Assembly (NCBI GenBank): GCA_043744275.1
Contig: JAYTUY010000012.1
Location: 5,403 to 69,402 of the forward strand
Source of the DNA: Saprospiraceae bacterium
GTDB lineage: Bacteria > Bacteroidota > Bacteroidia > Chitinophagales > Saprospiraceae
DNA length: 64,000 nucleotides
Direction of reading: 5' to 3'
How positions within the stretch are numbered: the first letter of the stretch is position 1; each line of letters starts with the position of its first letter. Positions 3,079 to 53,071 of the stretch are shown here, in pieces. Under the pieces are notes generated by a model. That model made no database searches. It saw only the letters and a list, made by a program, of their open reading frames with translations, and had not been told where the DNA came from. The position numbers and the translations under genes were made by a program.

Positions 3079-4917
3079 ATGAAAAACCCAACCCGTCTTT
3101 TTGATTTTATTTATCATCAAAATGACAATTATCCGCAAGAGAAAGCCTTTTCTTATAGGCATGAGGGCAAAGAAGTCAGCTCTTTTTCAACGGCTCAAAT
3201 TATTGAATTAGCCAATAAAGTGAGTTGTGGCTTATTAAAATTAGGCTTGAAACCGGGCGATAAAATCACTTCCATCATCGTTAAAAATCGCCCTGAGTGG
3301 ACGATTTTGGATTTGGGTATGATGCAAATCGGTGTCATCAATGTACCTGTTTATCCCTCTATCAGTTCATCGGATTATGTCTATATTTTCAACGATGCGG
3401 AGGTGAAAATGTGCTTTATTGGCGATGATACTGAGGGGTCTGTTTTTAAAAAAGTAAAAATAGCGCAAAGCACTGTGCCTTCATTATCAACGATTTATAC
3501 ATTTGATAAAACAGAAAATATTCCTTTTTGGGAAAATATTTTGCAAAATACTGAGGGGTATCAAAGCGAAGTGGATAGAATAAAAAAGACGGTTTTACCA
3601 ATCGATTTAGCCACCATAATTTACACTTCTGGTACGACAGGGCAGCCAAAAGGCGTGATGCTTTCGCATGAAAATATTGTCTCGAATATCAAATCAACAA
3701 TGCCCGTTGTGCCTATTCAAGCGGGTGATAGAGGTTTGAGTTTTCTACCATTGAATCATATATTTGAGCGCGTTTGCTCGTATGCCTACATGTATGCAGG
3801 GGCGAACGTGACATTCACGGGCGTTGATAATCTGGGCGGCGATAATGGCGATTTGAAAGCCGTGCAACCACATTTTTTTACAACTGTTCCACGACTTTTA
3901 GAAAAAGTTTATGAAAAAATATACAACAAGGGCTTGGAACTGAGGGGTCTGAAACGCGCTATTTTCTTTTGGGCGTTGCGGCTCACAGACGATTACGATT
4001 ACGATAAAGAATATACGGGGTTTAAAAAATTCCAAATGAGCATCGCTGATAAACTCGTTTTTACTAAGTGGCGTGAGGCTTTGGGCGGCTCTATAAAAGG
4101 CATCGTGGTGGCAGCGTCGCCTTGCCCGATGAAAATTTTGAAGACATTTTCAGCCGCCGGCATTCCTGTTCGCGAAGGCTATGGCTTGACAGAATCCTCG
4201 CCCGGTATTTCTATCAACCGCTTCGATAAGGGCATGTCGCGGATTGGATGTGTAGGCTCAGTACTCAATGGCGTGGAAGTCATGATTGACAGCAGCGATG
4301 GTAATTATGCCAAAAACGAAGGCGAAATCCTATCGAGTGGACTCAATACCATGATGGGCTACTACAATAAACCTGAAGAAACGGCAAAAGTCATCAAATA
4401 TATAGACGGGAAACGCTGGCTTTGCACGGGCGATATTGGCAAATTTGAAGAGCAAAATGGCTTTAAGTTTTTGAAAATAACAGACCGTAAAAAGGAACTA
4501 CTCAAGACTTCGGGCGGCAAATATGTAGCACCTGCACCAATTGAAAATAAATTTCGTGAAGACTTTTTGATAGAGCAAATAATGGTGGTGGGCGACAATC
4601 AAAAATTCGTTTCAGCGTTGATTGTTCCAGCTATTGATGCGCTCAAAGATTGGTGTCAACATCATGGCATTACTTGGACGCAGCTTTCAGAAATTGTTGA
4701 TAATCAAGAAGTTGTGAAAAAATATAAAGAAATTTTGGAAAAATACAACCCTAATTTTAGCCACGTAGAGCAAGTAAAAGTCTTTCGCCTCGTAGCCGAT
4801 AATTGGGAACCTGTGAAAGCCGATGGTTCTGTTGGCGAGTTGACACCGACGATGAAACTCAAGCGGCGTGTGATTTTGCAGAAATATAAAAGTATCATTG
4901 AAGAAATCTATAAATAA
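3079..4917 (+). CDS. long-chain fatty acid--CoA ligase (AMP-binding enzyme)
   Basis: AMP-binding signature IIYTSGTTGQPKGVMLSH, plus the GYGLTE and TGDIG motifs. Length is 612 aa. Confidence 0.85.
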   Translation: MKNPTRLFDFIYHQNDNYPQEKAFSYRHEGKEVSSFSTAQIIELANKVSCGLLKLGLKPGDKITSIIVKNRPEWTILDLGMMQIGVINVPVYPSISSSDYVYIFNDAEVKMCFIGDDTEGSVFKKVKIAQSTVPSLSTIYTFDKTENIPFWENILQNTEGYQSEVDRIKKTVLPIDLATIIYTSGTTGQPKGVMLSHENIVSNIKSTMPVVPIQAGDRGLSFLPLNHIFERVCSYAYMYAGANVTFTGVDNLGGDNGDLKAVQPHFFTTVPRLLEKVYEKIYNKGLELRGLKRAIFFWALRLTDDYDYDKEYTGFKKFQMSIADKLVFTKWREALGGSIKGIVVAASPCPMKILKTFSAAGIPVREGYGLTESSPGISINRFDKGMSRIGCVGSVLNGVEVMIDSSDGNYAKNEGEILSSGLNTMMGYYNKPEETAKVIKYIDGKRWLCTGDIGKFEEQNGFKFLKITDRKKELLKTSGGKYVAPAPIENKFREDFLIEQIMVVGDNQKFVSALIVPAIDALKDWCQHHGITWTQLSEIVDNQEVVKKYKEILEKYNPNFSHVEQVKVFRLVADNWEPVKADGSVGELTPTMKLKRRVILQKYKSIIEEIYK

Positions 4918-5457: not shown

Positions 5458-5493
5458 TAACTTTACGAGGGTTTTAAAACCCTCGTAAAGTTA
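5458..5493. terminator. perfect 36-bp palindrome TAACTTTACGAGGGTTTT/AAAACCCTCGTAAAGTTA
   Basis: Read directly from the sequence. It lies 25 nt after the stop at 5433. A near-identical copy is at 6015-6048. Confidence 0.6.
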
Positions 5494-5554
5494 TAACTAA
5501 TTGAAAGTCAATATTTTATGTTTATTAATTGAGAAATTAAAAATTGAATTATAC

Positions 5555-5992
5555 ATGAAAAAAATACTGTTTTTATTTTTAACAATCGCAGCGACAACGG
5601 CTTTTTCACAATCAGGTTTGAAAGACAATACTTGGAAAACGCTGTCCAAAATCACTTTCAAAAAAGAATACGACGAAGCATTGGGCATGAAAATAGACAT
5701 CCCTGTTTTCGGCAATGAAATCAAAGCCTTGTCAGGCAAAGAAGTGACCGTAAAAGGCTACATCATCCCAACGGATGGTTACAAAAACCAAAAAGAATTT
5801 GTCTTTTCAGCATTTCCTTACAATATGTGCTTTTTTTGTGGGGGCGCGGGACCTGAAACCGTGATGGAAGTGAATTCAAAAATGCCCATCGTTTACACCT
5901 CCGAACCTGTATATTTGAAAGGCATTTTGAGGCTCAATGGCACGGATGTTAATCGGCTGATTTATACGTTGGATAATGCGGAGAAACTTTGA
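5555..5992 (+). CDS. hypothetical secreted protein
   Basis: I moved the start to ATG 5555, giving the signal peptide MKKILFLFLTIAATTAFSQ. I recognised no family. Confidence 0.5.
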   Translation: MKKILFLFLTIAATTAFSQSGLKDNTWKTLSKITFKKEYDEALGMKIDIPVFGNEIKALSGKEVTVKGYIIPTDGYKNQKEFVFSAFPYNMCFFCGGAGPETVMEVNSKMPIVYTSEPVYLKGILRLNGTDVNRLIYTLDNAEKL

Positions 5993-6014
5993 AAATTCAA
6001 TTTTGAACGGTTGC

Positions 6015-6048
6015 AACTCTACGAGGGTTTTGAAACCCTCGTAGAGTT
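6015..6048. terminator. palindrome AACTCTACGAGGGTTT-TG-AAACCCTCGTAGAGTT, bidirectional terminator candidate
   Basis: It lies between convergent genes (stops at 5992 and 6137) and is a copy of the 5458-5493 palindrome. Confidence 0.6.
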
Positions 6049-6136
6049 ATTAGCTGCATATAATTTATAACAAAAAAAGCGAATCTGCTACAGATTCGCT
6101 TTTATCATATAATGTAAAACAATAAAAATCAAATAC

Positions 6137-12182: not shown

Positions 12183-13271
12183 ATGAATCAGACAATGTTT
12201 TTCAAAAAAAAAGTCATCATTCTGCTCTGTATTTTAGCAGCCGTGTTTTTCTTCGGTTGTCGAAAGCAATCACGTTCAGTTAGTACGTCTTTTTATCATT
12301 GGAAAACAGATTTTCATTTGACGGATTTTGAAAAAAATTATTGTAATCAATTGAAAATCAATAAGTTATATGTTCGATTATTTGATGTAGATTGGGATGA
12401 AGCCAGTCATTTTCCTATGCCGATAGCCATAGTTGATACTTTAGAGAAAACAGATTGGGAAATTATACCCACCATTTTTATAACAAATAAAACTTTTACA
12501 CAACTCGCTGATAATCAAATAGATACGTTAGTAAAATTAATTTTTGATAAAATTTTATTGAAAACTAAATCAGTTGTCACTGCGAGCAGAGCGTGGCAGG
12601 AGGGGGGTAAATTCAACGAAATTCAAATAGATTGCGATTGGACAGCCACCACGAGCGACCGTTTTTTTTCTTTTTTAAAAAAATTTAAAACTGTTTCTAA
12701 TAAAAAAATATCAGCGACCATACGCTTACATCAAGTGAAATTCAAGGAGAAAACGGGTGTGCCGCCTGTAGATGCAGGTGTTTTGATGGCTTACAATATG
12801 GGCAATTTGGATGATGTGAAAACGCAAAATTCTATTTTAGATATTGAAATTTTGAAATCTTATGTTTCAAAATTGAAAGATTATCCTTTAAAATTAGATG
12901 TTGCATTGCCGATTTTTAGTTGGGGAGTAGTGCTGCGAGATGGTGAAGTAGTGAAATTGATTAATAATTTAACTAAAAATGAATTACAACAGACCCCTCA
13001 GTATTTTGAGTATTTTAAAGAGAAAAAAGACAATCATTTTGAAGTTTTAAAAAATACTTACCTAAAAGGCTTTTATTTATACAAAGATGATGAAATTCGC
13101 ATTGAAAATACAGATTCAAAACAGGTCGATATTTTAGAAAAAGCAGCGGATATAATTTCGCAAAACATTAATAATCAACAACTTACAATCATTTTTTACC
13201 ATTTAGATTCTGTTACGCTCCAACGCATACGCTATGAAGAACTGGAAAATATTACCCACCGTTTTCAATAA
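12183..13271 (+). CDS. hypothetical lipoprotein
   Basis: Signal peptide plus Cys (FFFGCRK). I recognised no family. It contains the 33-bp GC-rich element. Confidence 0.5.
   Translation: MNQTMFFKKKVIILLCILAAVFFFGCRKQSRSVSTSFYHWKTDFHLTDFEKNYCNQLKINKLYVRLFDVDWDEASHFPMPIAIVDTLEKTDWEIIPTIFITNKTFTQLADNQIDTLVKLIFDKILLKTKSVVTASRAWQEGGKFNEIQIDCDWTATTSDRFFSFLKKFKTVSNKKISATIRLHQVKFKEKTGVPPVDAGVLMAYNMGNLDDVKTQNSILDIEILKSYVSKLKDYPLKLDVALPIFSWGVVLRDGEVVKLINNLTKNELQQTPQYFEYFKEKKDNHFEVLKNTYLKGFYLYKDDEIRIENTDSKQVDILEKAADIISQNINNQQLTIIFYHLDSVTLQRIRYEELENITHRFQ
12574..12607 (+). repeat. 33-bp GC-rich dispersed element, copy 1 (TTGTCACTGCGAGCAGAGCGTGGCAGGAGGGGG)
   Basis: It is near-identical (1 substitution) to 45422-45454 and is translated as VTASRAWQEG. 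Confidence 0.8.
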
Positions 13272-15537
13272 AAAACTTTTTGTTGCAGCCTTATTAGCAA
13301 CACTTTTTTTCACCATTTTACCCATCAGAACGGTGATGAGTGACTGTGGTATTTCGCTCAGAAATTACTCATTTGTGCACACTGATATTATGGAATCGCA
13401 ATCGGATTATGCACCCTATTTGATGGGCTATGGCATATTGAGTAATTACTATATGATGGAAAAACGCGAGCCTCAAATTGAAGACAATATCGGCGAGTGG
13501 CGTGGGCGATTCTGCAATATTCCCGATTCAGCAGATATTGATAAAATATTATATGATACAGATATTGATGAGTTGGCAGATTTGAGAGAAACCACTAATC
13601 GGTACAGCAAAAAAGATGTTTTTTATCAACTTCAAGACAATACTTTTGCTCAAGTGATTAAAGAAAATGGCTGTACAGACGTGGTGGATTATTTGATTTT
13701 TGCTAAAAATTGTGAGAAATATTGCGTCAAAGGAGAGGAATGGAGCGAGAAACCAAAGGACGTGGCGCAGATGTTTTTCTGGATCAACACAGGTCGCCAG
13801 CAGTTTAAAAACACCAAATCTTATTTTTTAAAATTGCGATATGCTTACCAAATAATTCGTTTGGCGCATTATGCCAAGGATTACAAAGCCGTTATAGACA
13901 TTTATAATGATGTAATGCCTAAAACGGATAAGATAAACAGTATCATCAATTATTGGATTTTAGGGCATAAAGCGGGGGCACTCAAGGCATTGGGCAAGCG
14001 GGCGGAAGCAGCGTATTTGTTCGCAGTGGTTTTTAGATATTGCCCCAGTAAAAGGCGTCAAGCGTTTGAAAGTTTTGACATTAAAACCGACCTCGAATGG
14101 CGACAATGCCTCAATCTTTGTCGCGACGATAGAGAGCGAGGCGCGTTATATGCTATCCGTGCGAGCTACGATAAAGCGAAGGCTTTTGAAGATATGAAAG
14201 AACTTTATCGGCTCGATCCTCAGAATGAACATCTGGAAATGTTGCTCATTCGAGAGACCTTGCGTTTGGAAAAAGTGCTTTTAGGTTCTTCGTTTAGGAA
14301 GCAAAATTATTCTACTGATATAATTAAAAAAAATACAGCATATTGTGTTGATTTTCAAAATTTTGTAAGAAAAGTGGCGAATGAAAACGCCGTTAAAAAT
14401 GCTGCTTTATGGCGCACTACTGAGGGGTATCTCAGCTTTCTTTTGGGCGATTGGTTTGAAGCTAAAAATACTTTTGCGCAAGCTCGAAAGATTGCCAAAA
14501 ATAATGTGCTGATAGAGCAAATTGATGCCTTCGATTTGGCTACCCGTATCGTTGGTTTGCAAGTCGGTGATGTGGCAAATGATTCGATTATGAACCTCAT
14601 TCGCAACCACAATGCTTACTTGAGCGATACCGATTTTGAAGACCTTTTTCATGATAAAGTAGCGTCTATTTATAGAAAAACAGGGCATCCTGGTATTGCA
14701 TATTTGACGGATTATTCGATTAGAGATTTAGAAAAAAATCCGCATTTGCCTGAAATTGATGACCTCATTGCCCTCTGTCGGAAGCCTCTAAAAACGCAAT
14801 ATGAGTTAGAATTAGTCACTTTGAGCGGTAAAAAGACCATCGAAACCATGCTTTGGAATGTGAAAGCAAGGTATCATCTTTCGAGGTTTGAAATGGAAGC
14901 AGCGAATGAATGTTTCAAACGCATTCCTGACAATGAACGTGGTAAAAAATATACGCCATTTTTGGATAAAATAAATGATTGTGTGGGGTGCAATAGTACG
15001 GACTCAGTGCTTTACAATCGGGCTGAATTTACTCAGCAAATGCTTTATTTGGAGTATCAAATTCGCATATCTTCACCTGGTATGGCAGTGGATACCAATT
15101 ATTATAAACTCGGTTTGGGCTATTTCAACATGACTTATTTTGGCAATAGCAGCGGCATTGCGGATTATTATCGCAGCGGGAAATCGTGGGAAAATATCAA
15201 TAGCGGTAAAAATGTGTTCTCTTTAAAGGGCTTTCCGCAGGGCAATTATGAGGTCACGGACGTATCACTTGCTTTAGAACATTTTGAAAAAGCCCGACAA
15301 ATGACTCAAAATCGGGAGCTTCAAGCCCGTTGCGCTTTTTGGAGTGCGAAATGCGAGCAGATATTGTTTTTCCTAAGCAAAGACAATCACTACACATTTA
15401 ATAATAAAACTGCGCCCACTGTACCCCCTCAGTATCGCCGCTATTTCAAGCTTCTGAAAGAGTATTATTCTGATACTCAATTCTATAAACAGGCAGCTAC
15501 TGAATGCAAATATTTTCAATTTTATACAACAAAATGA
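13234..15537 (+). CDS. hypothetical large protein (helical-repeat-like)
   Basis: Uninterrupted 767-aa ORF with an N-terminal hydrophobic segment. It overlaps the upstream gene by 38 nt, so the true start may be later. Confidence 0.5.
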   Translation: MKNWKILPTVFNKKLFVAALLATLFFTILPIRTVMSDCGISLRNYSFVHTDIMESQSDYAPYLMGYGILSNYYMMEKREPQIEDNIGEWRGRFCNIPDSADIDKILYDTDIDELADLRETTNRYSKKDVFYQLQDNTFAQVIKENGCTDVVDYLIFAKNCEKYCVKGEEWSEKPKDVAQMFFWINTGRQQFKNTKSYFLKLRYAYQIIRLAHYAKDYKAVIDIYNDVMPKTDKINSIINYWILGHKAGALKALGKRAEAAYLFAVVFRYCPSKRRQAFESFDIKTDLEWRQCLNLCRDDRERGALYAIRASYDKAKAFEDMKELYRLDPQNEHLEMLLIRETLRLEKVLLGSSFRKQNYSTDIIKKNTAYCVDFQNFVRKVANENAVKNAALWRTTEGYLSFLLGDWFEAKNTFAQARKIAKNNVLIEQIDAFDLATRIVGLQVGDVANDSIMNLIRNHNAYLSDTDFEDLFHDKVASIYRKTGHPGIAYLTDYSIRDLEKNPHLPEIDDLIALCRKPLKTQYELELVTLSGKKTIETMLWNVKARYHLSRFEMEAANECFKRIPDNERGKKYTPFLDKINDCVGCNSTDSVLYNRAEFTQQMLYLEYQIRISSPGMAVDTNYYKLGLGYFNMTYFGNSSGIADYYRSGKSWENINSGKNVFSLKGFPQGNYEVTDVSLALEHFEKARQMTQNRELQARCAFWSAKCEQILFFLSKDNHYTFNNKTAPTVPPQYRRYFKLLKEYYSDTQFYKQAATECKYFQFYTTK

Positions 15538-15539
15538 AG

Positions 15540-15610
15540 AGTGAAAAGCGGAAAGTGAAAAATGAACAAATTCACTCCATTTGTTCACTTTTCACTTTTC
15601 ACTTTTCACT
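15540..15610 (+). terminator. hairpin built from tandem GTGAAAA heptamers (about 30-nt arms)
   Basis: It starts 3 nt after the stop at 15537. Arms AGTGAAAAGCGGAAAGTGAAAAATGAACAAA and ATTTGTTCACTTTTCACTTTTCACTTTTCACT. Confidence 0.6.
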
Positions 15611-41594: not shown

Positions 41595-41658
41595 TTTCGG
41601 ATTTGGGATTTGGGATTTCGGACACTTCTCGGGCGCGCCCGAAATCCGAAATCCGAAA
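41595..41658 (+). terminator. hairpin of tandem ATTTCGG/ATTTGGG heptamers around a CGGGCGCGCCCG core
   Basis: It starts right after the stop at 41594. The right arm is CCGAAAT x3. Confidence 0.6.
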
Positions 41659-41729
41659 TACTGAGGGGGTAGGGCAGAAGTTACTCTAACAGTCTAATGT
41701 CTATTTTTCTAAATTCTAAAATAACGGCA

Positions 41730-44146: not shown

Positions 44147-44247
44147 ATTTTTAATAAATATAAAAGTCAACACCTAAATTGGTAAAATTCGTAAATTCGT
44201 TAAATTCGCGGCTTCCTAAACGTAATAGCTATAATTCAAAGTTTAAA

Positions 44248-45588
44248 ATGATAGAAAATCTCTATAAAATATTTCAAGAATACCAGACCGTCACGACCGA
44301 TACCCGTCAAATTACTGAGGGGTGCATCTTTTTTGCACTCAAAGGCGATACCTTCGATGGGAATGTTTTCGCAGAAAAAGCCTTAGAATTGGGAGCAATA
44401 TGCGCCGTTATTGACAATATTAGCTTCAAAAAAGATGATCGCTACTTTTTAGTGGACGATGTTTTGACCGCACTCCAAGATTTGGCAAGGCATCATCGCC
44501 GCCAATTTGATTTCCCAATTATCGCTATTACAGGCTCAAACGGAAAGACAACCACGAAAGAATTAATGGCTGCCGTAATGTCGAGTCAATACAATACTCA
44601 TTTTACAAAAGGCAATTTTAATAACCATATTGGCGTGCCGTTGACCCTTCTGCAACTCAATGCTGATCATGAAGTCGCCATCATCGAAATGGGGGCGAAC
44701 CACCAAGGGGAGATTGATTTATTGTGCAGAATAGCCGAGCCAACACATGGCTTAATCACCAATATGGGCAAAGCGCATTTAGAAGGTTTTGGCGGTTTTG
44801 AAGGGGTGAAAAAAGGGAAATCTGAGATGTATCGTTGGCTTGAAATGCATCTTGGCACTATTTTCTTGAATCAAGATGAGCCATATTTAATGGAATGCCT
44901 ACCTCAAAGTGCCTCACGTGTCATAACATACTGCCTCAGCCATGCACCCTCTATGACTACCCCTCAGTATGAAATCACTTTGGAGGCTTCAAAAGGCTTT
45001 TTGAAAGTCGGTTTTCTTAATTCAAAAGGTGAAATGGTGTATGCCACGACCAATTTAATCGGCGAATATAATTTTGCGAACATCGCTACGGCAGTGGCAG
45101 TCGGTAAATATTTTAAAGTACCGACAAGCAAAATTAAAAATGCTTTAGAAAATTATGTGCCCAGCATGAATCGTTCTCAACTCATGGAATATAAGGGCGC
45201 AACGCTCATTATGGATGCTTACAATGCCAATCCATCGAGCATGAAACAAGCTCTTTTGAATCTTTCAAAAATGCCTCAAACCTATAAAATTGCCATCATC
45301 GGCGATATGCGCGAACTCGGAGAGGAAAGTTTGAGAGAACATATTTCTATTTTAGAATTGGCTAAGTCATTGAATTTCAATGAGTTAGTAACAGTTGGAC
45401 ATGAATTTGGAAGAGTAAATATTGTCACTGCGAGCGGAGCGTGGCAGGAGGGGGTACATTTTGATGAAACTGAAAACGCCATGCAATGGTTTCAAAACAA
45501 AAAGTTTGAAAACGAAACTTGCATTTTAATCAAAGGCTCAAGGGGCATGAAATTAGAAACTTTATTAGAAAAACCGCAAACCCACTGA
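44248..45588 (+). CDS. murF: UDP-N-acetylmuramoyl-tripeptide--D-alanyl-D-alanine ligase
   Basis: TDTRQI start block and P-loop ITGSNGKTTTKE. I moved the start to MIENLYKIF. Confidence 0.9.
   Translation: MIENLYKIFQEYQTVTTDTRQITEGCIFFALKGDTFDGNVFAEKALELGAICAVIDNISFKKDDRYFLVDDVLTALQDLARHHRRQFDFPIIAITGSNGKTTTKELMAAVMSSQYNTHFTKGNFNNHIGVPLTLLQLNADHEVAIIEMGANHQGEIDLLCRIAEPTHGLITNMGKAHLEGFGGFEGVKKGKSEMYRWLEMHLGTIFLNQDEPYLMECLPQSASRVITYCLSHAPSMTTPQYEITLEASKGFLKVGFLNSKGEMVYATTNLIGEYNFANIATAVAVGKYFKVPTSKIKNALENYVPSMNRSQLMEYKGATLIMDAYNANPSSMKQALLNLSKMPQTYKIAIIGDMRELGEESLREHISILELAKSLNFNELVTVGHEFGRVNIVTASGAWQEGVHFDETENAMQWFQNKKFENETCILIKGSRGMKLETLLEKPQTH
45422..45454 (+). repeat. 33-bp GC-rich dispersed element, copy 2 (TTGTCACTGCGAGCGGAGCGTGGCAGGAGGGGG)
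   Basis: It matches 12574-12606 with 1 substitution and is translated as VTASGAWQEG inside murF. Confidence 0.8.
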
Positions 45589-47421
45589 CCAGCCCCACCA
45601 CTCATATTTATCGCCTGAAAGTTTGGCTTTTTCAGGGATAAGGTTCTTTTTTATCATTGAAATATCATTTGCAGTTTGATTTTTTGAATTAAGAAAATAG
45701 GTATTCCAAGTAGGGGCAAAGCCAATTCCAACCCGCTTCGTAATTTGTAAATTGAGGGCAGGAGCCAAGCGAACCAAACCACCTCGATTTTCAAAAAGCG
45801 GGTCAATCCAATAGCGATGTGCCGTAGCATCCAAAGTGAGGGCTACTGTTTTGCCAAACCAAATACTCGTGCCTAAGCCCATGCCACCGCTCAAAATATT
45901 GGTTTTTTGACCGAGTTGAGGTTGCCCACCCAAAGCATAAATAGTATAAAACCAGCGAGTGCCTGTGCGGAAAGAAATATTGCCATAAGTGACATCATTG
46001 CTCGAAAATTCAAGCACATGATAGCCTTTTTTGACAATATTAATCAAACCCAACAGCACCCCATCCGCCGTATCTGCTCTATTAATCAAGCCAATTTGAA
46101 GACCCCTCAGTCTATTCGCATGATTAATCAAACCAATTTGGATGCCTACTGTATCAGCTTTATTACCCACCGCAGCCGCTTGGAAAAAAGTGCGTCCTTC
46201 TGCCGTTTTGTTGTACATGCCAGCCACTTGAAAAACGCCTCTGCTACCTATCTCTGCATAATTATTAATGCCTGAAATTTGGAGACCCCTCAGTATTGTA
46301 TCTGAATAATTTGTAATGCCACCTACTTGAAAACCACTCACTTTCCTCGTCCGATTGATAATAGCAGAGGCTTGAATTCCTTTCATATTCCCTTTGACAA
46401 TATTAAAAAGTGACGCCAATTGCACACCTTTTACATCGCCTTGACTGATATTTCCCACGCCCGCTACCTCCATTTTATTATTTCCCTTTGAGTAACCGAC
46501 CGTCGCATTTACTGACCAATCATTGACCACGTTGCCACTCAAAGCCAAGTTTGTACCCACGTAAGGCGCGAGCGACGCTTGCCATTTTCTACTGAGGGGT
46601 TCTTGAATATTCAGTTCATTGATGCGCTGAAGTTCACTCACAGTCCGTCGAATGGCTTGATTGATTTGCAAATTGGAAATAAGCGTTTGCTCTGTAAAAT
46701 CTTCGGTTTTAGGCGTTTTTTCTACAATTTCATCACTATTTGCTTGTATTTCTCTCGATTCAACCTCTATTTTAGGCAGTAAAGACACATCAATATTTTG
46801 AGGGCTTGCTTTTTCACTTCGCACTTGCAGAACTGTATCGCCATAATTATAGCGAGCGATGGAGAGTTGTTGAATGGGTTTGCGAGTAATAATTTCATAA
46901 TAGCCCGCGCTATCCGTTGTCGCTGAAGCCAGCGTTTTTTTATCGTAAACCGTCACGTTCGATAGCTTTTTACCCGTTTTTTTATCGCTGATATAGCCGC
47001 CAATGAGTTGCTCATCGGCTTTGAGTTTTTGAATAATCAGATAATTGCCTTTTTCTTTAAATTGAAAATTATTGCCCAAAAGATTGGTCAAAACAGTCCG
47101 CACTTTTTCAGATTCGACACTCAACGATACTTTTTTTTCAGCATTAAATATATGGGCATTGTAAGAAAAATAGAAACCTGCTTGAGTAGAAATATCTTTC
47201 AAAACATCGCCCAAAGGCATATTGACAACCCTAATCGTCACGCTTCGTTCAAGTATAGGAGCAGCCATACCCCCCTCAGTCATGCTTTCAGTGAGCGCAT
47301 TTTGCGCCATCACGCTATGCGTGGCTTGATGGCGCGTTTGCGCCATATTTTTGCTAAAAAGAGAGTAAAAAGTCGTTGAAAAAAATAGAATCAAGGGCAA
47401 CAAGTGTTTGTTTTTTCTCAT
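45565..47421 (-). CDS. STN domain + carboxypeptidase-regulatory-like domain + surface-repeat (LA_2272-like) protein
   Basis: Signal peptide, then an STN-like block VTIRVVNMPLGDVLKDISTQAGFYFSY, then GGYISDKKTGKKLSNVTVYD, then many G(V/I)Q(I/L)xG(I/L)xN repeats. I saw no TonB plug or barrel motifs. Confidence 0.65.
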   Translation of the reverse strand: MRKNKHLLPLILFFSTTFYSLFSKNMAQTRHQATHSVMAQNALTESMTEGGMAAPILERSVTIRVVNMPLGDVLKDISTQAGFYFSYNAHIFNAEKKVSLSVESEKVRTVLTNLLGNNFQFKEKGNYLIIQKLKADEQLIGGYISDKKTGKKLSNVTVYDKKTLASATTDSAGYYEIITRKPIQQLSIARYNYGDTVLQVRSEKASPQNIDVSLLPKIEVESREIQANSDEIVEKTPKTEDFTEQTLISNLQINQAIRRTVSELQRINELNIQEPLSRKWQASLAPYVGTNLALSGNVVNDWSVNATVGYSKGNNKMEVAGVGNISQGDVKGVQLASLFNIVKGNMKGIQASAIINRTRKVSGFQVGGITNYSDTILRGLQISGINNYAEIGSRGVFQVAGMYNKTAEGRTFFQAAAVGNKADTVGIQIGLINHANRLRGLQIGLINRADTADGVLLGLINIVKKGYHVLEFSSNDVTYGNISFRTGTRWFYTIYALGGQPQLGQKTNILSGGMGLGTSIWFGKTVALTLDATAHRYWIDPLFENRGGLVRLAPALNLQITKRVGIGFAPTWNTYFLNSKNQTANDISMIKKNLIPEKAKLSGDKYEWWGWSVGLRFF

Positions 47422-52907: not shown

Positions 52908-53071
52908 GAGTCCAGCGGACTCTTACGTTTGTAGGGATATTAATGAACAAGTTCTCCCGAGTCCATCGGACTCGCACATAATACGTTACACACATAATAT
53001 TATGTGCGAGTCCGCTGGACTCGTAAAAAAGTATTTTATTTTTGCTACAAACGTAAGAGTCCGCTGGACTC
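52908..53071. repeat. 164-bp nested palindrome with four GAGTCCNNNGGACTC mini-hairpins
   Basis: The outer 27-bp arms (52908-52934 and 53045-53071) are perfect. The inner 25-bp arms (52959-52983 and 52998-53022) have 1 mismatch. Confidence 0.85.

Follow-up and report, generated by a model that had tools for sequence, protein, structure and literature searches.

Small repeats resembling repetitive extragenic palindromic (REP) sequences are already known within genes from Rickettsia and a few other bacteria. Rickettsia palindromic elements (RPEs) of the RPE-1 type are about 100–150 nt long and occur only in Rickettsia, and in REPIN/RAYT systems GTAG-tagged REPs are mobilised by Y1 HUH transposases. 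No report is known to us in which small repeats insert at DNA uptake sequences (DUS), uptake signal sequences (USS) or HIP1. Here we describe a small repeat in a stretch of 64,000 nt from a Saprospiraceae bacterium (assembly GCA_043744275.1, contig JAYTUY010000012.1, positions 5,403–69,402 of the forward strand; hereafter the window), whose strict link to a conserved, hyper-abundant word in the DNA is new. It is probable that 24-nt units of a repeat shared across phyla were recently inserted, in one orientation, at or inside the word ATACT/GAGGGG(K), where the slash marks the junction, in murF, in a lipoprotein gene and in other genes.

The preliminary description of the window, made from its letters alone, likened the insert to RPEs, and the closest described class, the CGTC-tagged REPs, does include Rickettsia RPE-4 and RPE-6 along with Neisseria dRS3 (Di Nocera, De Gregorio and Rocco 2013; PMC3733652). 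These REPs are 20–40 nt long and have CGTC, in many cases TGTC, as 5′ tag (CCTC is allowed), a stem starting with A and a CCA tail; the four described families have 8–9-bp stems and 4–5-nt loops (PMC3733652). They are mostly intergenic and arranged as head-to-head dimers, which can form a single long hairpin. Bacteroidetes and Spirochaetes are among the several phyla that have them, some copies lie in frame within genes, and no dedicated transposase is known for them (PMC3733652). Some REP dimers lie inside particular target palindromes, and general siting at one word is not described for CGTC-tagged REPs (PMC3733652).

The shared stretch and its two host genes

The 33-mer TTGTCACTGCGAGCAGAGCGTGGCAGGAGGGGG occupies positions 12574–12606 of the window on the plus strand, and a second copy with one A/G difference lies at 45422–45454, also on the plus strand. 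A mismatch search and translation bear out the near-identical, same-frame pair of the preliminary description: allowing up to three mismatches, the window has two matches against 0.00 expected (none in 100 shuffles). The two copies are identical at 32/33 nucleotides, third codon positions included, and both start at the second base of a codon, giving the peptides VTASRAWQEG and VTASGAWQEG. Their flanks are dissimilar, the similarity ending at the 33-mer edges, and the GC content is 67% against 38% for the window, in line with the richness in GC that had been noted. The host genes and the parts of each copy are as follows.

12183–13271, plus strand: host gene 1, lipoprotein-like, function unassigned; a 362-aa open reading frame (ORF) with a signal peptide and cysteine, conserved in Saprospiraceae
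12575–12599, plus strand: copy 1, tag T and the 24-nt unit GTCACTGCGAGCAGAGCGTGGCAG (unit 12576–12599), encoding VTASRAWQ, residues 132–139 of the lipoprotein-like ORF
12600–12607, plus strand: retained 3′ target half at copy 1, GAGGGGGG; native, empty alleles having GAGGGGGG after ACT
44248–45588, plus strand: host gene 2, murF, with Mur_ligase, Mur_ligase_M and Mur_ligase_C domains
45423–45447, plus strand: copy 2, tag T and the 24-nt unit GTCACTGCGAGCGGAGCGTGGCAG (unit 45424–45447), encoding VTASGAWQ, residues 416–423 of the 469-aa ORF, in the MurF C-terminal domain
45448–45454, plus strand: retained 3′ target half at copy 2, GAGGGGG; native, seen in empty murF alleles

The 362-aa ORF at 12183–13271 has no match in Pfam. 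The murF gene probably starts at ATG 44248, where nearly all aligned orthologues begin (with MIENLYK); the mechanical 469-aa ORF opens 23 codons earlier, at TTG 44179. Relatives show a 24-nt indel just upstream of this start, at about 44243–44250.

Filled and empty alleles

Orthologues of both host genes at 85–93% identity occur with or without the insert, and remoter relatives are without it. Among MurF orthologues at 88–93% identity (Saprospiraceae where a source is named), the eight residues are present in P0001, P0003 and P0007 and absent from P0002, P0005, P0006 and P0008, while relatives at 55–78% identity read VNTEGVHF or similar at this place, with no insert. At the DNA level, murF is filled in the window and in the related contigs L003, L004 and L005, and empty in L001, L002 and L007. 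The empty site is AAATACT/GAGGGGGTACAT in L007, with AATACT/GAGGGGGTACAT common to all three empty contigs; the window has AAATATT, then GTCACTGCGAGCGGAGCGTGGCAG, then GAGGGGGTACAT, which is longer by exactly 24 nt. The lipoprotein gene is filled in the window, P0123 and L131, and empty in P0124, P0126, P0128–P0131 and the outgroups; the empty allele of L128 reads ..AACGGCGCT/ACTGAGGGGGG, with ..GCT before the junction.

Because the empty alleles keep the GAGGGG sequence, the trailing GAGGGGG of the 33-mer is native and the inserted unit is 24 nt long, (T)GTCACTGCGAGCRGAGCGYGGCAG. The 33-nt element of the preliminary description thus stands as a shared stretch; its mobile part is shorter, and the trailing GAGGGG(G) is the native half of an abundant word. 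The shared stretch is inserted DNA, a derived state and not shared protein ancestry: the eight residues are an insertion in both proteins, outgroups are empty, and further copies exist in unrelated genes, antisense to genes and between genes. The preliminary description was therefore right to call the pair a mobile or templated in-frame DNA insertion, and neither of the two observations it named as counting against this, ancestral residues in distant taxa or a restriction to two copies in alignable domains, was made.

The insertion site is an abundant, conserved word

The 3′ end of the 33-mer had been said to echo an abundant word, CTGAGGGG. The echo is real and weightier than was noted, since the word is the insertion site. 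Its consensus is ATACTGAGGGG followed by G or T, and both empty sites contain ACTGAGGGG. There are 54 copies of TACTGAGGGG in the 64 kb (0.03 expected) and 62 of ACTGAGGGG. These 62 sites show no strand skew and occupy both strands and every permissible frame: 15 are read in the sense direction in the phase encoding TEG and 13 in that encoding LRG, 11, 8 and 4 lie antisense to genes in the phases PSV, PLS and PQY, and 11 are intergenic. Seven of the 62 serve as examples.

233, 3430, 3550, 14419, 44314, 47272 and 60369: example word sites

The word recurs at about one per kb in every related contig, including one at 70% protein identity. It is intact in 52/57 orthologous comparisons (85–90% nucleotide identity), against 28–40% for random 9-mers, so the constraint on it acts at the DNA level, as it does for uptake sequences or HIP1. 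The GC content of the sequence upstream of words as a whole shows no rise (0.40 against 0.38), so most words are empty. No description of the word was found in the literature, where the unit and word strings matched only unrelated primers.

Indels also concentrate at the word. Of the five coding indels of at least 15 nt between the window and six related contigs, four fall within 12 nt of a word, in neighbourhoods that cover about 3% of the window. An independent test was provided by the 612-aa acyl-CoA synthetase (3079–4917) and 31 orthologues, in which all internal indels fall at residues 117 and 155–158. These positions are the gene's two TEG-phase words (3430 and 3550), and there is none at its LRG-phase word (3939). 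In the DNA of two of these orthologues the indel is a 24-nt T-variant of the unit, and in a third, more distant one it is a 21-nt insert at the other word. The word thus marks where protein-length variation arises in Saprospiraceae. The converse relation, in which the word would be a remnant of the unit after an internal 18-nt deletion, was considered and rejected, since in the clean pairs the difference is 24 nt and ACT is kept.

Further copies and other inserts at the word

Additional sites in the window hold an intact word at which relatives, or the window itself, carry an insert.

47272–47280, minus strand: site 3, intact word ACTGAGGGG in phase TEG, in a CarbopepD_reg_2-like gene downstream of murF; 24-nt unit there in L003, L004 and L006
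47280–47345, minus strand: in-frame insert of 66 nt, GC-rich and in part palindromic, MAQTRHQATHSVMAQNALTESM, adjoining the site-3 word on its 5′ side; in the window genome only among those compared
3550–3558, plus strand: site 4, acyl-CoA synthetase gene, word intact; immediately 5′ of it L254 and L255 have the 24-nt GTCATTGCGAGCGATAGCGNGGCA
3430–3438, plus strand: intact word in the gene for acyl-CoA synthetase, the exact place of the 4-aa and 7-aa inserts of orthologues P0247 and P0301
12994–13003, minus strand: lipoprotein gene, word intact (as CCCCTCAGTA); a hairpin insert of 21 nt, CCGAAGGGATGCCTTCGG, lies 5 nt from it in L130

At site 3, L001 is empty (AAAAATACT/GAGGGGGG) and L003 reads ATATAACT, then GTCACTGCGAGCGAAGCGTGGCAG, then GAGGGAG. 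For L003, L004 and L006 together the filled allele is ATATAACT, then GTCACTGCGAGCGRAGCGTGGCAG, then GAGGGRG, an exact gain of 24 nt between ACT and GAGGGG without duplication. The T-variant unit, GTCATTGCGAG..GGCA, stands directly 5′ of a whole word in L129, L068, L254 and L255 (+24 nt at site 4). Related contigs hold more copies in long ORFs, in the same frame, as well as copies antisense to ORFs (LPRSARSD twice and SCHTPFAVT once) and intergenic ones. The roughly 17 Saprospiraceae copies are all solo, with T before and a GAGGGG-like sequence after, and have one orientation relative to the word. No target-site duplication is seen between empty and filled alleles, and a 5-bp stem is all that the 24-nt unit has by way of terminal inverted repeats. 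Metagenome matches to GTCAYTGCGAG..GAGGGG proved to be units of other phyla with a nested CCCCGAGCG..CGAGGGG hairpin in the loop and added no Saprospiraceae copies.

Inserts of other kinds are found at the same word. The 66-nt insert of the window contains small palindromes (ATGGCGCAAACGCGCCAT..) and lies towards the N terminus of the CarbopepD_reg_2-like protein; L001 lacks it, and L003, L004 and L006 have the 24-nt unit instead. In L130 an unrelated hairpin, TGCCGAAGGCATCCCTTCGGG, lies 5 nt upstream of two words. It belongs to a second insert family, TGCCGAAGGCATCCCTTCGGG then AAAATACTGAGGGG, at positions 2479–2496 and 2915–2932 of L130 (about 12583 and 13008 in the window), whose two copies share a lipoprotein gene in opposite orientations, both at 5 nt from a word. 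Between genes, at 41610–41680 of the window, the palindrome TTCGGGCGCGCCCGAA and three ATCCGAA repeats stand directly 5′ of a word, in a stretch that amounts to a 50-nt indel relative to L003.

Reading frame and protein tolerance

The unit spans eight codons and has no stop in any sense frame; it has a stop in one antisense frame. Where the word is in the phase xxT-ACT-GAG-GGG, the unit adds VTASxAxQ. All sense genic sites (9/9) are in this V[TI]AS frame, that of TEG-phase words (p about 0.004, given 15 TEG to 13 LRG). Read in the LRG phase, the unit would give the arginine-rich SLRAERGRRG, and copies in that frame have probably been selected against. The frame common to the copies is the outcome of the word's codon phase and, probably, selection.

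The inserts are tolerated because they are only eight codons long and located in loops. In the AlphaFold model of MurF the predicted local distance difference test (pLDDT) score falls below 50 at residues 418–423, and the insert is modelled as a loop between a helix (408–416) and a strand (425–428). A surface loop had been expected for MurF, and a low-confidence loop is predicted. In the model of the lipoprotein-like protein, the only segment with a pLDDT below 50 comprises residues 132–141, of which 132–139 are the insert.

Structure of the unit and its relatives in other phyla

At least 120 loci, from no fewer than 10 phyla, match the pattern GTCACTGCGAGCNNNNCGNGGCAG. Hosts of the matches include Comamonadaceae, Sulfurimonas, Chloroflexi, Spirochaetota, Ignavibacteria, Cyclobacteriaceae, Planctomycetes, Actinomycetota, Alphaproteobacteria and a bacterium of the candidate phyla radiation (CPR). 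In these other phyla the 24-mer is mostly one arm of a long intergenic hairpin, (C)GTCACTGCGAGCGNAGCGYGGCAGTCCATG..CATGGATTGCCRCGCTNCGCTCGCAATGAC(G). An inverted partner lies within about 106 nt in 82/123 copies, and the hairpins fold with −18 to −35 kcal/mol. The base before GTCAC is C in 87/123 and T in 33/123 copies, and TCC or TCT follows downstream in 116/123. In the other-phyla set of 201 copies, C (134) or T (60) precedes GTCA in 194; T is found in all Saprospiraceae copies. The unit is followed in other phyla by (T)CC (127) or (T)CT (60 of about 200 copies), often as CCATG, and in Saprospiraceae GAGGGG takes the place of this tail.

The unit is a small stem-loop with a CGTC/TGTC tag, a 5-bp stem A[C/T]TGC/GCA[G/A]T, a 12-nt GC-rich loop and a tail. 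This layout is assigned to each unit from covariation between the fifth base and the one that follows GCA: T is matched by A in 64/64 and 95/97 copies, and every C-type copy pairs C with G, although both bases are there for the most part set by the search pattern. Written in this way, the Saprospiraceae unit is (T)GTC-ACTGC-GAGCRGAGCGYG-GCAG. No Rfam family was found for loci with hairpins or with solo copies. Among 2.9 million viral contigs the general unit turns up in two and the Saprospiraceae-type one in none, so a phage vehicle is not indicated.

Several variants of the repeat were seen outside Saprospiraceae. Many units of other phyla (e.g. L186 5573–5661, L247, L140 and L146) have a second hairpin nested in the loop, GTCATTGCGAGGA then CCCCGAGCGNAGCGAGGGG then GACGAAGCAATC, and the repeat family is therefore modular. 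In the Comamonadaceae loci L019, L064, L079 and L101, tandem partial copies (..GTCACTGCGAG plus 10–15 nt, two to three times) stand immediately upstream of full hairpins, and several Rhodoferax loci have a common conserved 40-nt sequence, CCGAATCCGGCCCGATACCGCACACGGACCTTGAAC, ahead of the hairpin.

Comparison with known systems

The 24-nt unit appears to be a relative, not a proven member, of the CGTC-tagged REPs, with which it was compared by layout. It has the CGTC/TGTC tag and A as first base of the stem, and in other phyla it is mostly intergenic, frequently dimeric and without an enriched adjacent transposase; the CCA or CT that follows it there may correspond to the CCA tail. It differs in its covarying 5-bp stem and 12-nt loop, which fall outside the 8–9-bp stem and 4–5-nt loop of that class. 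The Saprospiraceae units differ further in that each stands alone, at one specific abundant word, and has GAGGGG where the CCA tail would be. With RPEs the unit shares in-frame insertion in unrelated, often essential genes, polymorphism among relatives and a location in loops, which is predicted here. Unlike RPE-1, it is 24 nt long, belongs to a family across phyla, has a defined word as its site and resides in a Saprospiraceae host.

As in REPIN/RAYT systems, the repeats are small stem-loops with a conserved 5′ tetranucleotide, form dimers and lack terminal inverted repeats and target duplications; in contrast to them, the tag is CGTC/TGTC and not GTAG, singletons occur inside genes, and no RAYT gene was found adjoining copies in the window or among 150 ORFs next to hairpins. 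A classical miniature inverted-repeat transposable element (MITE) would show a target-site duplication and terminal inverted repeats, whereas the 24-nt unit has no duplication and no such repeats beyond the 5-bp stem. Fixed orientation, the lack of duplication and a specific adjoining sequence are reminiscent of IS200/IS605 elements; the insertion offset, however, varies by insert family, and no enzyme was found in the window or the same 150 ORFs. It is the word, and not the unit, that resembles DUS/USS and HIP1, being 10–12 nt long, present about once per kb on both strands and in all frames, and conserved at orthologous positions beyond coding. Unlike HIP1, it is non-palindromic, and no competence link for such a word in Bacteroidota was found in the literature.

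Mechanism of insertion

In the Saprospiraceae lineage it is single units that entered, in fixed orientation, at the 5′ edge of the word or inside it, without target duplication. The unit would be moved by an element-specific activity drawn to the word, probably acting on single-strand DNA (HUH/Y1-like or other). Selection would then purge copies in the arginine-rich frame and in the stop-containing frame, and insertions within genes would survive where eight codons with no stop in the frame used hit words in loops. The insertions are orientation-specific and free of duplication, and their exact boundaries are the same in phyla lacking the word; this favours an activity which recognises the unit itself while being attracted to the word. 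The best analogue may be a single-strand HUH-type reaction, for which we would put the chances at even or slightly short of it.

Several observations weigh against this picture. The window gene map has no transposase-like gene, and no transposase family is enriched among the 150 ORFs adjoining hairpins in other phyla. The insertion offset to the word varies (+3 for C-type units, 0 for T-type units and −5 for the CCGAAGG hairpin), where one precise site-specific cut predicts otherwise. Filled murF alleles differ over 9–45 nt just 5′ of the unit, which fits recombination patches or error-prone repair equally. A single unit folds only weakly as DNA (−3.7 kcal/mol), and the Saprospiraceae copy census and frame statistics comprise about 20 copies, some of them found by a pattern that fixes part of the sequence.

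Some of these points would be expected if the units spread without any enzyme, by template switching or short-patch microhomology recombination between words, possibly of taken-up DNA, with the half-words AAATACT and GAGGGGGT as homology arms. At about one word per kb, a genome should contain thousands of identical words; several unrelated insert families share the same word, insert sites lack a target duplication, and no transposase was found in the window gene map or the 150 hairpin-adjoining ORFs. The empty murF of L001 and the filled one of L005 are 99–100% identical on both sides of the insert save for a 45-nt cluster of changes ending at it. Over the whole gene (44248–45588 in the window) these two alleles form a mosaic, with 98–100% identity at both ends and 80–90% in the middle, which implies frequent recombination between populations and so favours enzyme-free copying. 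Against such copying, the 5′ boundary of the unit is constant in all copies and equal to that in phyla without the word, the left half-word is poorly kept (ATT or AAT oftener than ACT), and arms of 6–8 nt are very short for recombination. On balance we regard enzyme-free spread as unlikely, though still a serious contender.

Explanations that deny a recent insertion altogether fare much worse. A functional VTASGAWQEG motif, conserved or convergently selected in both proteins, would account for the one frame of both copies, and E. coli MurF has ISTASGVGEHF at the aligned place. The TASG in common with E. coli MurF was judged a coincidence, as it comprises four residues only and the ancestors of the lineage lack the insert. 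Selection on the protein would also leave unexplained an identity of 32/33 at the nucleotide level that extends to third codon positions, the close orthologues without the eight residues, the antisense (LPRSARSD, SCHTPFAVT) and intergenic copies together with the intergenic 24-mer of other phyla, and the prediction of the insert residues as disordered loops; the empty alleles refute it, and we give it almost no credence. It is very improbable, too, that the filled state is ancestral and was lost by precise deletions, or that it is an assembly artefact or chimera. Precise loss of small hairpin-forming DNA is known and the sequences are metagenome assemblies, but outgroups at 55–78% identity are empty at both sites, the unit is found at the same sites in independent assemblies (ENA ERZ285735xx, ENA ERZ273xxxxx and NCBI metagenome-assembled genomes), and reading frames remain open.

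With recent insertion of units at the word as the preferred reading, a broader and rather doubtful proposal can be made, in which the word ATACTGAGGGG(K) would be a dedicated landing site, a lineage-wide signal possibly used in uptake or recombination, and the activity would insert several GC-rich stem-loop families at its 5′ edge. If so, thousands of words in coding DNA would be pre-set sites for insertions of 7–22 residues exchanged between related species, a two-part system of word and module without a described counterpart. In this lineage empty and filled sites can be paired exactly in several genes, each site has a defined sequence, and the units are solo, a simpler arrangement than dimers; target choice and chemistry are therefore testable. 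The persistence of a nearly unchanged 24-mer across at least 10 phyla calls for an explanation, such as a shared recognising factor or wide horizontal spread.

Other repeats in the window

Three further groups of repeats were noted in the window. A 75-nt hairpin of GTGAAAAG repeats at 15535–15609, downstream of a gene for 767 aa, is absent from L130. At 52908–53071 a cluster of palindromic repeats, GAGTCCRNCGGACTC, occupies an intergenic region that differs in length among relatives. Inverted repeats at 5458–6049 are spaced as if around a small transposase gene, a candidate that was dropped, as the gene they flank encodes a small secreted protein. The two near-identical hairpins that bracket this gene, ACTTTACGAGGGTTTTAAAACCCTCGTAAAGT, lie at 5458–5523 and 5984–6049.

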